DNA of 64,000 nt, taken from assembly GCA_963727845.1 (NCBI GenBank), contig CAVSHI010000003.1, positions 787,764-851,763 on the forward strand. Reading direction: 5' to 3'. Below the pieces are notes generated by a model, which saw only the letters and a list, made by a program, of their open reading frames with translations, searched no databases and had not been told where the DNA came from. Source of the DNA: Ignavibacteriota bacterium (GTDB taxonomy: Bacteria; Bacteroidota; Ignavibacteria; UBA10030; SZUA-254). The first letter of the stretch is position 1; every line of letters begins with the position of its first letter. The position numbers were made by a program, and so were the translations under genes. Positions 6,190 to 28,486 of this stretch are shown here, in pieces.

Positions 6190-6984
6190 CTACCTTGAGC
6201 TGAAGCACGAGATACCCATCACCGGCTCAAGGCGTACGAGTTTTTCATCTCCCGGATAATATACGCGTTCGAGGAATAATCCGGACGGCGGGGCCGTCAG
6301 TTTGGCGGGGGCATCCGATCTGACGTTCAGGAATCTTTCGACTTCCTGAACAGGTAGTTTTCCGCGACCGACCTCGGCGAGAACGCCAACCACCTGACGG
6401 ACCATCTTCCACAGGAAATGGGATCCTTCGATACGCAACAGAATCAGCTCGTCCGCCTCCTTCAGCGTCAACCCTTCGATGAGCACCTTTGTCGATTTCT
6501 CCTCGGGGTCGTCGGCAGTGAATGACTGGGCGTTTTTCATTCCGACAAAGAGCTTCGCGGCATCTCTCATCCTGTTGATGTCCAGAATATCCTTGATCCA
6601 CCACACGTACCTTTTTCCAAAAGCAGTTCGCCTCCGCGAGATCTGGTAGAGATAGCTTCGCGATACCGCATCGTGCCGTGCGTGGAAGTTCCGGTGAGTT
6701 TTTTCTACTTCAAGGATGTTGATATCCGCCGGCAGGAGGTCATTGATCTTCATCCTGATGATTTCGGGGGCAAGGACCGTTTTCACATCGAGGTGGGCGA
6801 CCTGGCGGAGTGCATGAACACCGGCATCGGTCCTGCCGGCGCCGTAGAATTCAAGATCGCTTGTGTCGAACACTTCCCGCGCCGCATCCAATAGCTCTCC
6901 CTGGATGGTGCGGGCATTCTGTTGGACCTGCCATCCGCTGTAGCGCGTTCCTTCGTACTCGAGATAGATCTTAAACCGTGGCAT
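6190..6984 (-). CDS. truA: tRNA pseudouridine(38-40) synthase
   Basis: 264 aa; MPRFKIYLEYEGTRYSGWQVQ...FYGAGRTDAGVHALRQVAHLDV carries the catalytic Asp motif of TruA. Confidence 0.9.
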   Translation of the reverse strand: MPRFKIYLEYEGTRYSGWQVQQNARTIQGELLDAAREVFDTSDLEFYGAGRTDAGVHALRQVAHLDVKTVLAPEIIRMKINDLLPADINILEVEKTHRNFHARHDAVSRSYLYQISRRRTAFGKRYVWWIKDILDINRMRDAAKLFVGMKNAQSFTADDPEEKSTKVLIEGLTLKEADELILLRIEGSHFLWKMVRQVVGVLAEVGRGKLPVQEVERFLNVRSDAPAKLTAPPSGLFLERVYYPGDEKLVRLEPVMGISCFSSR

Positions 6985-7022
6985 TGTAATTATTCTTCAC
7001 TTGTGCGGGACTATTCATTCTT

Positions 7023-7226
7023 AGGCCATAACGAATTCCCCTCCTCCGGAGGGGACAAAGGGGTGGGTTGCTAAGGCACTTCGATTTGTAAATCGCACCC
7101 TGCGGACTCCTTCTCATTTACAGCAGTCACACACCCCTAAATCCCCTCTCAAGGGGGGACTTACTGGTTCCATTCACATGCCATTACAAATTCCCCTCCT
7201 CCGGAGGGGATACAGGGGTGGGTACA
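7023..7226. repeat. left arm of composite palindromic repeat cassette (U1-X-U1') flanking the DUF559 gene
   Basis: U1 = ccat[a/t]ac[g/a]aattCCCCTCCTCCGGAGGGGa[c/t]a[a/c]aGGGGTGGG, a 7-bp stem hairpin plus G-tracts. X = ~90 bp ending cagcagtcacacacccctaaatcccctctcaaggggggacttactggtt. Both recur 3' of the gene. Confidence 0.6.
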
Positions 7227-7585
7227 TTTTCATCAATCCAATCTTCAATGGCCATTACAACACCACGCAGATTGCTCTTCACATCAAGATCGTTGAATCT
7301 CAGAAATTCAACTCCTAACGATCGTAACCGTTTCTCTCGCTCCTTGTCGTGTTCCGTTTTTGCATCATGACTGCAGCCATCGACCTCAATGGCAAGGGAT
7401 AAGTCGCTGCAGAAGAAATCGACGATATAGTTATCAATCGGTTTCTGGCGATGGAAATCGTGCCCTCTCATCTTCTTCCCTTTCAGTTCTTTCCACAGTA
7501 TAATTTCAGCAAGCGTACTGTTGTTTCGCAAACTTTGAGCGAGTTGTTTCAACGCCGGATTGTATGGTATTATTTTCCTTCTCAC
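7184..7585 (-). CDS. DUF559 domain endonuclease-like protein (Vsr/restriction-endonuclease-like fold)
   Basis: LRNNSTLAEIILWKELKGKKMRGHDFHRQKPIDNYIVDFFCSDLSLAIEVDGCSHD is the conserved DUF559 core. The ORF extends to 7651, but its first ~22 codons are read through repeat unit U1, so the GTG at 7585 is the more likely start. Confidence 0.7.
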   Translation of the reverse strand: MRRKIIPYNPALKQLAQSLRNNSTLAEIILWKELKGKKMRGHDFHRQKPIDNYIVDFFCSDLSLAIEVDGCSHDAKTEHDKEREKRLRSLGVEFLRFNDLDVKSNLRGVVMAIEDWIDENVPTPVSPPEEGNL

Positions 7586-7624
7586 CAAATGATCCTCCCG
7601 AGAACACGCCCCTAAATAGCCACA

Positions 7625-7812
7625 ACAAATTCCCCTCCTCGGAGGGGACAAAGGGGTGGGTTGCTAAGCCATAACGAATTCCCCTCCTCCGGAGGGGATA
7701 AAGGGGTGGGTTCTCATTGCACTTTGGTTATTGAGCCGCACCCCAAGAACTCCTTTTCATTTACAGCAGTCACACACCCCTAAATCCCCTCTCAAGAGGG
7801 GACTTACTGGTT
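7625..7812. repeat. right arm of composite repeat cassette (U1-U1-X) flanking the DUF559 gene
   Basis: Two tandem U1 copies (7625-7668, 7669-7719) and a second X copy (7719-7812) about 90% identical to the left X (7075-7168). The cassette ends 7 bp before the pdxJ stop. Confidence 0.6.
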
Positions 7813-7818
7813 TCGGCT

Positions 7819-8538
7819 CTACTCCCCTCGTTTTACCAGCCGCACCATCTCGCGCACGGCCTCATCGAGTCCGACGAAGACGGCGCGCACCATGATAGCG
7901 TGTCCGATGCTGACTTCCTCAATCTCCCGAATTCCGGCAAACGGTTTGATGTTGCCGTAATCGAGCCCGTGGCCTGCATTGACGCCGAGCTCAAGGTCCA
8001 CAGCAAATTTCGCAATCGACCGCAGATGCCGGAGGAGATGTGTTCGCCGGTAGCTTGATCGAGCATTGGCATATTCGCCGGTGTGTATTTCCACCATATC
8101 AGCGCCGACCTCTTTTGATGCTTCAATTTGATCGACCCTCGGATCTACGAAAAGACTCACTGCAATGCCCCGCTGATGCAATTCCGCAACAGCCCGTCGC
8201 ACCGATGCCCTGCGCCGCACGACATCGAGGCCTCCTTCCGTTGTCAGCTCCCGCCGCCGTTCAGGAACGAGAGTCGCCAGCTCCGGCCTGATCCGGCGTG
8301 CAACGGCAATGATCTCCGGCGTTGCCGCCATTTCCAGATCCAGCTTTGTCGTCACCGCTTCACGCAGTCTCTTCACATCGTCGTCGCGAATATGGCGCCG
8401 GTCCTCACGCAGATGACAGACAATTCCGTCCGCGCCGGCTTTCTCGGCAACAAGGGCGGCAGCCACCGGGTCTGGAATATCCCCGCCCCGGGCGTTGCGC
8501 AGAGTAGCCACATGATCGATGTTGATTGAAAGCCTCAT
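7819..8538 (-). CDS. pdxJ: pyridoxine 5'-phosphate synthase
   Basis: MRLSINIDHVATLRNARGG...IVCHLREDRRHIRDDDV is the canonical PdxJ N-terminus; I chose the internal ATG over the longer ORF. Confidence 0.9.
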   Translation of the reverse strand: MRLSINIDHVATLRNARGGDIPDPVAAALVAEKAGADGIVCHLREDRRHIRDDDVKRLREAVTTKLDLEMAATPEIIAVARRIRPELATLVPERRRELTTEGGLDVVRRRASVRRAVAELHQRGIAVSLFVDPRVDQIEASKEVGADMVEIHTGEYANARSSYRRTHLLRHLRSIAKFAVDLELGVNAGHGLDYGNIKPFAGIREIEEVSIGHAIMVRAVFVGLDEAVREMVRLVKRGE

Positions 8539-8545
8539 GGTAGCT

Positions 8546-9469
8546 TCACAATTTTTTTCTGATGATGAACTGAAACCGCTCCGGAGTCCGGCGGATGACG
8601 CTGACTTCCGACGGCGCGGAAACAAGAGGTGTGATTATTCCGGTCGTGTCCTGAACCAGCGCCTCGTACGCTATACTCGCCTGGAAATCCGATGCGGAAA
8701 GTCGTGCGAGCTGGTCTATCCCACCGCGGACAATCAGATCAATTTTCGGGGGGATGAAGATCACTTCCCGGTTCGGGGGCAGCAAGGTCGCGGTGAGGGG
8801 AATTCCGGAAAATGTCTTCTCCGCGAACGGCTGCACATCGACCTGGAGATGCACCGTGGACGGGACCACGTTCAGCGAGAAATCGGTCGGCTCCTCAACC
8901 CCCAGCTCCTCATTGACGGGATTGTGCTGGTTATCGTATTTTCTGTAGACTGTTTGCCACCGTGAGATCGTCTCAATGAGATTGGCGGCTCCGCCGACAA
9001 GAACGCTGTCCGGGAAAATGTGCAACGGGCCGACCTGTCCGTACCCTTCCCGATAACTTAGAATGACCTGGGGGACCAGCGGCACGCGTTTTTCTTTGTA
9101 ATCCGCAAGCGCGAGCACGAGTGTCTCCGGCTTCACATCAACCGGTTGAACTGCCATCGGCAATTTCACATGCTCAAAAAAATCACGCTTTGTAACCATA
9201 TACTCTTCGATGCTCAAGGACAACATGTCGATGTAGTATCTGACATCGCTTGAAAAGTAGATGGCGGCAAGCTGCCAACCGCGCCCCTTAAAGCTGACGA
9301 CGATGGTCTTCGGAACAGCAAACTTAAGTGCCTTCCCTTCTTTTAAATTCTCCACCACCACCGGGACGTGCTTCACCAGCGTGTATTCCTCTGCCATGTT
9401 GATCGAGATCCAGACCAGGATGGCGAAAATTATCGAAGCGATGACGATATGGTAACGTTTTCTTTCCAT
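8546..9469 (-). CDS. YbbR-like domain-containing membrane-anchored protein (CdaR-like)
   Basis: N-terminal TM helix (HIVIASIIFAILVWISI), then repeated beta-rich modules with the spacing typical of YbbR repeats. The assignment is by architecture only. Confidence 0.5.
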   Translation of the reverse strand: MERKRYHIVIASIIFAILVWISINMAEEYTLVKHVPVVVENLKEGKALKFAVPKTIVVSFKGRGWQLAAIYFSSDVRYYIDMLSLSIEEYMVTKRDFFEHVKLPMAVQPVDVKPETLVLALADYKEKRVPLVPQVILSYREGYGQVGPLHIFPDSVLVGGAANLIETISRWQTVYRKYDNQHNPVNEELGVEEPTDFSLNVVPSTVHLQVDVQPFAEKTFSGIPLTATLLPPNREVIFIPPKIDLIVRGGIDQLARLSASDFQASIAYEALVQDTTGIITPLVSAPSEVSVIRRTPERFQFIIRKKL

Positions 9470-27547: not shown

Positions 27548-27700
27548 TCGTTTCCCTCAACTTTTAGCCTGTGAACAAACGCAGCGGCGTCTCTCGAATT
27601 GAAAACCGGATTGTGTCCCACGAGCTTTAGCTCGTGGACGAAGGCGACGCCATGTCTCGCACGGAATTTTGAATCGCACTTCACGAGTCACCTGTATCCT
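27548..27700. repeat. REP hairpin cluster 3' of the RAYT gene (1.5-2 degenerate units)
   Basis: Contains cccacgagctttagctcgtgg (9-bp stem) and ctctcgaattgaa..., homologous to the units at 28360-28486. Confidence 0.6.
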
Positions 27701-28344
27701 TCTTTTACATAGCTCCATTTCCACTCTTCGGGCGTACTCGTTATCCCTGCAACGACGGAATTGTACAACACGTAATCAATAATTCGTCTCAATTCCTGGC
27801 CGCAACGCACGACATGGTCGTAACTTTCATGGTGCCAGAAGCTTCCACTCCTGTCAAGCAACTGATTTGCCCGACGTGAGGTGCGTCCCTTCAGGAGTCG
27901 CAAGATGCGCGTCAACCTGAATCGATTGTTCTGGGTATTGCCCTGCGGTTCAGACGTTGGCTCAAACCCGCGCAGATCAATCACCATGTGGACATGATTT
28001 GGCATAATGGTATAAGCTATCAAACTATAGAGTTTATCATCCATGTCGTGCATCTCCTTTGCAACCAATCCCGCTACTGCAGGATCGTTCAACCAATGCG
28101 GACCGTTCTTAGCCTTCTCCAGGAACGCAGTATATCCATCAACGTACTTCTTCGGCAACTCTCCCCGACACCGACCATGCATCCCGTTTATGAGAACTCT
28201 TCTCTTCTCCACCGGATCGTCGACCAATGCCTTGAGGACATTCTTCGGTAACGATTCCGCTAATCGGAATGTGACGAAGAAAACTGCTTCAGCCGGCTGA
28301 TAGTGCGGCAAATGCCGCCGATAATATGTGTTGTCCTCCCCCAT
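27688..28344 (-). CDS. IS200-like / REP-associated tyrosine transposase (Y1 HUH transposase, RAYT-type)
   Basis: YYRRHLPHYQ...FFVTFR, the HUH motif in AYTIMPNHVHMVI, GRTSRRANQLL, and the catalytic Tyr in SFWHHESYDHVVR. Start set at the ATG (MGEDNTYY) just outside the REP array. Confidence 0.8.
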   Translation of the reverse strand: MGEDNTYYRRHLPHYQPAEAVFFVTFRLAESLPKNVLKALVDDPVEKRRVLINGMHGRCRGELPKKYVDGYTAFLEKAKNGPHWLNDPAVAGLVAKEMHDMDDKLYSLIAYTIMPNHVHMVIDLRGFEPTSEPQGNTQNNRFRLTRILRLLKGRTSRRANQLLDRSGSFWHHESYDHVVRCGQELRRIIDYVLYNSVVAGITSTPEEWKWSYVKEGYR

Positions 28345-28359
28345 ATCGCAACCCTGTGT

Positions 28360-28486
28360 CACGAGCTTCATCTCGTGAACATGGCCAATTGCATCCTCTC
28401 GAACTGAAGTTCGAGACACATCTCACGAGCTTCATCTCGTGAACATGGCCAATCGCAACCCCTCGAACTGAAGTTCGAGACACATC
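28360..28486. repeat. tandem REP units (2 x 62 bp) 5' of the RAYT gene
   Basis: Each unit is cacgagcttcatctcgtg (6-bp stem) + aacatggccaat + ctcgaactgaagttcgag (7-bp stem) + acacatc. The two copies differ at about 5 positions. Confidence 0.75.

Follow-up and report, generated by a model that had tools for sequence, protein, structure and literature searches.

Does the nuclease gene that lies between truA and pdxJ in an Ignavibacteriota genome belong to the hairpin repeats surrounding it, or do gene and repeats merely share a place? The locus is a 790-bp insert within a 64,000-nt stretch of contig CAVSHI010000003.1 (hereafter the window, to which all window-wide repeat counts refer), in which a gene of the DUF559 family stands among short repeats named U1 and X. 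A preliminary description of this DNA had proposed a nuclease flanked by its own hairpin-repeat family, probably selfish and following the logic of REP-associated tyrosine transposases (RAYTs) and their repetitive extragenic palindromic (REP) sequences. The proposed link between nuclease and repeats holds as an association, which is real and non-random, while an action of the nuclease on the repeats is something that we infer. We give an even chance to the explanation that we favor, namely, that the insert is a small selfish nuclease-repeat cassette with the DUF559 gene as its core and inverted modules of the triplex type as its ends.

Six copies of one module surround the DUF559 gene

Repeat comparison reproduced the order given previously, U1-X-U1'-[gene]-U1-U1-X. 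Four direct copies of U1 were found at 7016-7068, 7171-7223, 7610-7662, and 7659-7711, the third one with a 1-nt deletion in its loop, and a 148-nt U1+X unit is present twice (7022-7169 and 7665-7812) with 86% mutual identity. The U1 copies are 85 to 96% identical to each other, and the X copies taken alone are 82% identical, less than the approximately 90% first reported. Within U1 lies a 32-nt module made of a C-rich arm, a loop, a purine arm, a linker, and a G/T tract. X indeed ends in a second palindrome, as had been noted, but this palindrome is not an independent repeat: the core matches on the minus strand are found where the X units end, and the end of X is therefore an inverted U1. 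X thus consists of a 60-nt spacer and an inverted U1 module (7129-7159; 7772-7802), and U1-X is a 123-nt miniature inverted-repeat unit (7037-7159; 7680-7802). Both of these units pair a module of a CC/TGG flavor with one of a CT/TGT flavor.

All six modules of the window lie within 7037-7802. The 20-nt core pattern GAGGGGAYWHAGGGGTGKGT matched six times in the window, four times on the plus strand and twice on the minus strand, all at this locus, where 0.02 matches were expected, and a 19-nt hairpin core searched with up to 3 mismatches was likewise confined to the truA-pdxJ locus. The repeats are therefore far beyond what chance could explain. No Rfam family was found at gathering thresholds in the whole window, and 6950-7850 gave chance-level matches only.

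Read from left to right, the insert starts with module M1 (7037-7068, plus strand), which is composed of the pyrimidine (Y) arm CCCCTCC, the loop TCC, the purine (R) arm GGAGGGG, the linker ACAAA, and the G/T tract GGGGTGGGT, and which reaches the full score of 7/7 with a generic detector of fold-back triplexes. M1 forms the left end of miniature unit A. The interior of this unit (7069-7128), i.e., the body of X, is 60 nt long, non-coding, and without significant similarity to the DUF559 gene, and its right end is M2 (7129-7159, minus strand), an inverted copy of the CT/TGT flavor with one T.G in the stem. M3 (7192-7223, plus strand), which corresponds to U1', overlaps the 3' end of the DUF559 open reading frame (ORF) and codes for the C-terminal tail of the protein, PTPVSPPEEGNL; tails of the form PTPxxPxxEGNx are likewise present in aligned DUF559 homologues. 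The gene itself occupies 7184-7585 on the minus strand. Upstream of it are the remnant of an inverted module (ACACGCCCC-TAAAT; 7604-7617, minus strand), at the equivalent place of which a relative (locus L002) harbors a full module, and M4 (7631-7661, plus strand), a solo module with a loop shorter by 1 nt. Miniature unit C completes the insert, with M5 (7680-7711, plus strand) as its left end, a 60-nt interior (7712-7771), and the inverted M6 (7772-7802, minus strand; CCCCTCT-TG-AGAGGGG-ATTTA-GGGGTGTGT on that strand) as its right end.

The G/T tract follows the rule of a purine-motif triplex

In at least five sequence variants, the bases of the G/T tract mirror those of the purine arm, G standing with G and A standing with T or A: purine arm AGAGGGG with tract GGGGTGT, GGAGGGG with GGGGTGG, GGAGGAG with GAGGTGG, GAAGGGA with AGGGATG, AAGGGG with GGGGTA, and G6 with G6. 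When C/G hairpins from all loci were considered, 366 of 932 were followed within 30 nt by a mirrored third strand matching at 7/7 positions, compared to 13 of 932 after shuffling of the downstream sequence and 113 in a non-mirrored register. The linker between hairpin and mirrored tract was mostly 3 or 5 nt long. Since the module sequences are related, the following counts are not independent events, and the case rests on several distinct types of variants: AGG occurred with TGG 53 times, AGA with TGT 39 times, G5+AAG with G5+ATG in 8 of 10 cases, G4+AAG with TAG in 2 of 2, and G6 with G6; in a run-anchored contingency, A in the arm stood with T 51 times (with A 8 times and with G 9 times), and G in the arm stood with G 77 times (with T 6 times). 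If the innermost bases of the two hairpin arms do not match each other, it is the purine arm with which the tract agrees. Both module flavors found in the 123-nt units of the window keep the rule. Five of the six window modules scored 7/7 with the generic detector, no motif was found in 20 shuffles of the window, and the same detector finds BoxC of Escherichia coli.

G.G:C, T.A:T, and A.A:T pairings, with a third strand that runs antiparallel to the purine strand, constitute the established rule of purine-motif triplexes. The description given by Holder et al. (2015, PMC4666352) is consistent with this rule. Because the pairings between tract and arm follow it, we assigned the module to the class of fold-back purine-motif triplexes: judging from the sequence, one strand of the module could fold into a pyrimidine-purine-purine (Y-R-R) triple helix of the BoxC/PIT class. 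Repeats of this class were first noted in the 1990s, and they are not known to have an enzyme or a mode of spreading (PMC4666352). According to the same study, intrastrand triplex motifs occur in large numbers in bacteria, especially in Enterobacteria and Cyanobacteria. The element TMECO (also known as BoxC or PIT element), with the pattern CCCTCNCCC-N3-6-GGGNGAGGG-N3-GGGNGAGGG, forms a triplex in vitro, is intergenic, and marks unstable loci, and remnants of transposases or integrases were "never found" near it (PMC4666352). The TMECO consensus, which has 9-nt stems, had no match in the window; the module is thus of the same class but does not belong to the TMECO family.

Two other structures were considered. 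One is that the G tract forms Watson-Crick pairs with the C-rich arm; it was dropped, since pairing by hand works for the CC/TGG flavor and fails for the others. The G tracts had also been called G-quadruplex capable. This was rejected, because neither strand of 6991-7830 contains a canonical motif (four runs of at least three G with loops of 1 to 7 nt) and because a G-quadruplex also does not account for the A-to-T mirror co-variation.

In the upstream modules of seven loci (L060, L068, L075, L082, L086, L092, and L095), the 3- to 5-nt linker is swapped for an extra GC-rich hairpin of 12 to 24 nt, e.g., GCCTCGTGTAACGAGGC. By its sequence, this hairpin would still keep the G tract beside the stem.

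Module, gene, and inverted module form a rule across phyla

A search with the DUF559 protein returned 2,332 relatives. The best 120 of these are at least 58% identical, and the names of their sources include Bacteroidota, Ignavibacteria, Kryptoniota, Patescibacteria, and Gammaproteobacteria. We surveyed 80 metagenomic DUF559 loci with a strict detector, based on the module sequence, and with a second detector that presupposes no sequence. The strict detector found an upstream module at 54 of 78 loci and an inverted module at the 3' end at 42 of 76, the latter being an undercount. Up to 130 nt upstream of the gene, the density was 6.8 modules per kb, 56 of 68 modules pointing into the gene, and at the 3' end it was 4.5 per kb, with 56 of 66 inverted; beyond 500 nt, it was 0.03 to 0.15 per kb. 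The sequence-agnostic detector gave 5.1 per kb upstream and 3.3 per kb at the 3' end versus 0.03 to 0.15 per kb, and 50 of 72 loci were positive. Furthermore, the two ends of one locus are more alike than ends compared across loci (0.753 versus 0.694; permutation P < 1e-4). The distance from a forward module to the next inverted one peaks at 356 to 472 nt, which is the size of the gene, and a minor gene-less class has spacers of 11 to 130 nt. The upstream module may lie as close as 2 nt to the start codon or more than 40 nt away from it. Hence, most of the 80 homologues from other genomes are bracketed in a fixed inverted orientation, and the arrangement module-gene-inverted module is a rule for this DUF559 subfamily across phyla.

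The genomic surroundings of these cassettes differ widely. At locus L023, whose protein shares 71% amino acid identity with that of the window, the gene lies between xanthine-dehydrogenase-like and amidohydrolase genes; TCCCCTCTTGAGAGGGGATTTAGGGGTGTGT is found 2 bases 5' of the ATG, and the inverted module ACCCACCCCTACCCCTCCAAAGGAGGGGA spans the stop codon. The DUF559 genes of L094 and L097 are 84% identical at the nucleotide level and have unrelated neighborhoods. Close DUF559 homologues thus occupy unrelated genomic contexts. In seven Bacteroidota-like loci (L029, L038, L043, L044, L046, L055, and L056), the cassette is present at the same cysS-ispG junction, and the flanks are only 68 to 76% identical. 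Gene remnants adjoin the modules in L050. Distant DUF559 genes on cyanobacterial plasmids harbor analogous, lineage-specific modules consisting of a hairpin plus a G tract. One of them, on the Synechocystis sp. B12 plasmid CP101712.1 (L107, 19334-21858), lies with its modules inside a seemingly split DUF1156 methylase gene, which is annotated as a 175-aa N-terminal fragment and a 434-aa "hypothetical protein."

An exact 33-mer scan of 185,579 species genomes, for which the query was too strict, gave a single match, on a Verrucomicrobiota contig. DUF559 relatives were not found in viral contigs. The phage-like IMG/VR contig 2681813420_000004 (L006, 1929-9894) harbors about 20 modules, among them four gene-less inverted pairs with conserved interiors of 112 to 130 nt, and no DUF559 gene was found on the 10 kb of this contig that were read.

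The truA-pdxJ junction exists in filled, empty, and decayed forms

We then compared the same junction in relatives, whose truA orthologues are 86 to 93% identical and have pdxJ as a neighbor. The comparison with an empty site that the preliminary description had called for could be made: in L104 (GCA_049515655.1; truA 89% identical), a 58-bp spacer separates pdxJ and truA and contains neither module nor gene, while other relatives carry repeats. The spacers with and without the insert have diverged too far for the insertion junction to be defined. In L002/L003 (JGI metagenome), we found a module, an intact gene, a full inverted module, and then a truncated unit; the distance between the gene and truA is only 42 bp, and unit A is missing. 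Unit A is also not present in L057 and L105. The DUF559 gene of L057 has an in-frame internal deletion, and its module array differs, while that of L105 has two deletions, and the fold-back detector finds no motif there. One site thus exists with intact (window and L002), empty (L104), and decayed (L057 and L105) alleles. The existence of the empty site shows that the cassette was inserted, and in some lineages it is decaying.

The pseudogene of L105 (2700-2960) is neighbored by two modules that both have stem-breaking mutations (TTCCCTCC...GGAGGGG and CCCCTCC...GGAGGAG). This single case hints that gene and modules decay together.

The DUF559 gene of the window (7184-7585) is 94% identical to that of L002 (5379-5780) at the nucleotide level, while the flanking housekeeping genes are about 85 to 87% identical. 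Synonymous differences between the two affect 12 of 134 codons in DUF559 and 64 of 260 in truA. Because they are fewer in DUF559, the comparison suggests that the cassette is younger than the divergence of the hosts or was recently exchanged between lineages.

The DUF559 protein is a predicted nuclease with a Vsr-like fold

The ORF at 7184-7651 (minus strand) matches Pfam DUF559 (PF04480) with an E value of 1.1e-28 and 99.7 bits (cut-off, 20.6). The proposed start at the GTG at 7585 holds: all 22 aligned homologues begin with MRRKIIPYNP, and the true start is therefore this GTG, which gives a protein of 133 aa. D56, E67, D69, and H73 are invariant in the 22 homologues and align with the VDF...E-DG--H segment of 3HRL. 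In a profile search, the closest solved structures were 3HRL (NGO0050; E=2.4e-21) and 3R3P, the catalytic domain of I-Bth0305I (E=0.027). A model of the protein made with AlphaFold2 (AF2; predicted local distance difference test [pLDDT], 84.5) gave the same two structures in Foldseek, 3HRL with 3e-7 (TM 0.83) and 3R3P with 1e-3 (TM 0.81), followed by PvuRts1I, TnsA, and Vsr (1VSR, probability 0.92). The protein is thus predicted to have a Vsr-like alpha/beta fold. The Vsr Pfam family itself was not reported for the protein, for which Pfam gives only DUF559 and a weak match to MTES_1575, and PADLOC gave only a weak match to mREase_II. The protein is not an equivalog of YcjD either, as NCBIfam PRK09767 (YcjD) scored 62.7 bits against a cut-off of 218.

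Between the window copy and the 95%-identical copy of L002, 12 codon changes are synonymous and 9 are nonsynonymous; among the latter, several fall in the module-encoded tail. These raw counts suggest that the gene is under purifying selection. Because of the invariant D/E/D/H core, the fold matches, and the synonymous and nonsynonymous counts, the protein looks functional, and we predict it to be a nuclease.

No Dcm-type cytosine methyltransferase gene is adjacent. The neighbors are truA (tRNA pseudouridine synthase; 6190-6984, minus strand; PF01416, E=2.6e-32), the left boundary of the insertion, and pdxJ (7819-8625, minus strand; PF03740, E=2.8e-98), the right one. The true start of pdxJ is probably near 8538, because its Pfam match begins only at residue 31.

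ycjD of E. coli lies beside a BoxC element

In E. coli MG1655, the stop codon of the DUF559 gene ycjD lies within a degenerate inverted BoxC hairpin, CCCTCTCCCTGAAAGAGCGAGGGGG. Beyond the gene come a partial second copy of its 3' end and then a full TMECO (L109, 7206-7240; the whole region, 7206-7761, corresponds to about 1351205-1351760 of NC_000913.3). This TMECO is listed without comment in Table S2 of Holder et al. as lying between fabI (164 nt) and ycjD (167 nt) (PMC4666352). MG1655 has 23 BoxC/TMECO copies in 4.64 Mb, and we estimate the chance of one lying within 250 nt of ycjD to be about 0.0025.

Of 5,426 complete E. coli genomes, 3,378 have ycjD (38% lack it), and the gene is highly conserved in phylogroups A, B1, and C. 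It stands there in place of the eefRABCD operon, and it does so independently in ST69 and ST182 (PMC12817139). A clean empty site was not found in E. coli, where ycjD-negative strains have the eefRABCD island instead. Published TMECO counts are 19 to 30 in strains of the ycjD-bearing phylogroups, with the exception of UMNK88 (13), and elsewhere 1 to 2 in B2, 6 in IAI39, 11 in O157, and 12 to 15 in 042 and UMN026. That the counts are highest in the phylogroups with ycjD is suggestive but confounded by phylogroup.

[quoted passage not shown] Holder et al. make no connection between DUF559 and triplex repeats (PMC4666352). The pairing therefore appears undescribed, as first supposed, but the repeat class itself had already been described (BoxC/PIT, PMC4666352).

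A selfish nuclease-repeat cassette and its alternatives

If the insert is a selfish cassette, one strand of the module would fold into a hairpin, and the G/T tract that follows would lay itself on as a third strand. The DUF559 protein would then recognize or cut the folded or palindromic module, and host recombination or repair would subsequently copy, rearrange, or maintain the modules and the gene. Such a process would be homing-like or RAYT/REP-like rather than the work of a classical cut-and-paste transposase. Gene-less pairs of modules, such as the 123-nt U1-X units, and solo modules would be non-autonomous or decayed relatives. Recognition would have to be structural and not sequence specific, because one DUF559 gene is often flanked by two module flavors, as in the window and in L023.

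Several points weigh against this explanation. The action of the DUF559 protein on the modules is itself inferred. Furthermore, a hydrolytic PD-(D/E)XK nuclease alone cannot perform strand transfer and therefore does not by itself account for the spread. At the locus itself, a possible 5-bp target-site duplication (CATTC) flanks unit A, but it is indistinguishable from the result of recombination between U1 copies, which explains it equally well. Recombination between modules alone can likewise explain the differences among relatives at truA-pdxJ. The interior of X in the window shows no significant trace of the gene: we rejected the idea that it is an internally deleted DUF559 gene, since the only match was one of 9 nt (TGAGAAGGA), equalled in 76 of 500 shuffles. 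The preferential association of the repeat with DUF559 holds in the window, where the module occurs nowhere else in 64 kb, but not everywhere, as complete modules without a DUF559 gene were found in 19 phage-like contigs and 1 Verrucomicrobiota contig. Since modules are also found at places remote from any DUF559 gene, the association is one-directional, as it is for RAYT and REP. Modules can also flank other cargo in repeat-rich genomes: in the 3.3-kb contig L030, which has a DUF559 gene and 12 modules, a gene for an N6/N4 DNA methyltransferase (PF01555, E=3e-51) lies between a forward and an inverted module (810-1881). Stable retention at cysS-ispG is unusual for a selfish element and also fits a gene that benefits the host. 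Finally, E. coli phylogroups D and E, which lack ycjD, retain 11 to 15 BoxC copies, showing that BoxC persists without ycjD, and no ycjD fragments were found beside other E. coli BoxC copies.

According to a first alternative, the modules are independent repeats of the BoxC/PIT type that spread and cause local instability by themselves, and the DUF559 genes are free-standing selfish genes that land or survive between them, as some insertion sequences target REPs, the nuclease having no role in repeat biology. We regard this as rather unlikely. Modules are indeed common without DUF559, gene-less pairs with 11- to 15-nt spacers could be "empty" targets, and the rearrangements seen in the window, L002, L057, and L105 resemble recombination between modules; Holder et al. 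moreover tie TMECO sites to rearrangements without any associated enzyme. However, independent repeats leave unexplained the 50- to 100-fold enrichment of modules at DUF559 genes, their fixed orientation, and their overlap with the 3' coding end. In the lineage of the window, modules were found only with the gene, and a nuclease that targets modules for its own insertion would still be acting on them.

The long retention of the cassette at cysS-ispG across diverged relatives, together with the apparent purifying selection on the gene, raises a different alternative, in which DUF559 is a domesticated, host-serving, structure-specific nuclease that processes or repairs the triplexes or hairpins of the repeats, policing rather than spreading them, and stays beside a repeat for historical or regulatory reasons. 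The high conservation of ycjD in phylogroups A, B1, and C would be in agreement with such a role, as would the fact that Vsr, the founding member of the family, is a repair nickase. Still, we find it unlikely: close relatives have lost the gene or keep it in decayed form, and the loci read show no sign of compensation; moreover, similar genes are found in unrelated contexts, one insertion splits a methylase gene, and 38% of E. coli genomes do without ycjD.

It is less probable still, and in our opinion improbable, that the modules act as signals in the expression of the DUF559 transcript, i.e., a 5' hairpin near the ribosome-binding site and a 3' stabilizer or terminator, or that the inverted ends pair in the mRNA like rRNA intervening sequences. 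Modules do cover the stop codon and lie just 5' of the start codon, pairing between the inverted ends across the ORF is conceivable, and the strands of the locus fold better than shuffled ones (z of about -3.7). Yet the mirror co-variation between G tract and purine arm is not a Watson-Crick feature, and purine-motif triplexes cannot form in RNA (PMC4666352). In addition, modules stand at anything between 2 and more than 40 nt from the start codon, the gene-less pairs and the solo copies are maintained and increase in number, and the hairpins are not followed by a U-tract.

Lastly, that U1 and X are the REPs of a RAYT-like transposase about 20 kb away, with DUF559 as a bystander, is hardly credible and was excluded, since the RAYT-like ORF (27688-28419, minus strand; Y1_Tnp matches it weakly, with E=2.4e-4, which does not reach the Pfam cut-off) has different repeats of its own (hairpin TCACGAG-CTTCAT-CTCGTGA in two 64-nt tandem units, 28359-28486, unrelated to U1), U1-like sequence was not found near it, and the pairing of DUF559 and modules recurs in the genomes sampled irrespective of RAYT.

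Extending the selfish-cassette explanation beyond the window, we tentatively hypothesize that DUF559 proteins are the missing cognate enzymes of the BoxC/PIT triplex repeats, an idea that we hold to be possible but doubtful. They would be structure-specific nucleases that recognize the fold-back triple helix, accept different flavors at the ends of a cassette, and drive the spread, maintenance, or rearrangement of the repeats across Bacteroidota, Ignavibacteria-like lineages, Cyanobacteria, and Enterobacteria. If true, this would be a nuclease-repeat symbiosis parallel to that of RAYT and REP, built on another enzyme fold and another DNA structure. DUF559 is a very large family without a known role, and the oriented link to the modules may offer one. 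Since this link extends from uncultured Bacteroidota-like genomes to ycjD and BoxC of E. coli, it opens to experiment both the question of where triplex repeats originate and that of what DUF559 does. If the hypothesis were confirmed, there would be a natural protein whose substrate is a DNA triple helix, selfish elements would gain a new type, and a structure-directed nuclease might become available as a tool.

Comparison with known systems

The module itself most resembles BoxC/PIT/TMECO (Hoyne et al. 2000, as cited in Holder et al. 2015, PMC4666352), in which a C-rich arm, a loop, a G-rich arm, a short loop, and a mirrored G-rich third strand follow each other in the same way. Both are intergenic, lie at locally rearranged loci, and have no transposase or integrase nearby. 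The window module nevertheless differs from TMECO by its 7-nt instead of 9-nt stems, by its sequence, and by T.A:T replacing some of the G.G:C triples. The triplex of TMECO was shown by Holder et al., whereas that of the window module is predicted from its sequence. Moreover, no enzyme is linked to BoxC/PIT, while the window modules bracket a nuclease gene.

As for the arrangement, it recalls that of RAYT and the REPs or their hairpin-forming doublets, the REPINs (Bertels and Rainey 2011, PMC3116915): a single enzyme gene lies between inverted short hairpin repeats, the repeats far outnumber the genes, the doublets are miniature units, and the structure of single-stranded DNA probably matters. 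However, RAYT is an HUH/Y1 transposase, and DUF559, a hydrolytic Vsr-like PD-(D/E)XK nuclease, cannot do the same chemistry. The window repeat also has a third segment of the triplex type, unlike REP. The unit of DUF559 gene and repeats appears to be horizontally mobile and decays, while RAYTs are typically vertical. With respect to REP-like dispersal, no modules were found elsewhere in the 64 kb, and other genomes show local arrays, such as the 12 modules in 3.3 kb of L030. The U1-X units, for their part, are similar to MITEs in being short (123 to 148 nt), non-coding, and bounded by terminal inverted repeats of about 32 to 45 nt that are shared with a gene-bearing element, but there is no DDE or other transposase, and their interior is not demonstrably gene derived.

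Among nucleases, the homing endonuclease I-Bth0305I and the other free-standing or intron-borne Vsr-like "EDxHD" enzymes (PMC3239194) share with DUF559 a related catalytic fold and a polymorphism of presence, absence, and decay at one site. The target of I-Bth0305I is pseudopalindromic around the cleavage site, and the window module pair is also palindromic. In contrast, the DUF559 protein has no NUMOD or helix-turn-helix (HTH) domain, is only 133 aa long, and is not encoded in an intron or intein, and its gene is flanked by repeats that also exist as dispersed copies. Vsr of E. coli, finally, belongs to the same superfamily group (VSR/DUF559/DUF2726) and is a distant fold match (1VSR). DUF559 differs from it in having no Vsr Pfam match, no adjacent cytosine methyltransferase, and nothing that would suggest T:G mismatch repair.

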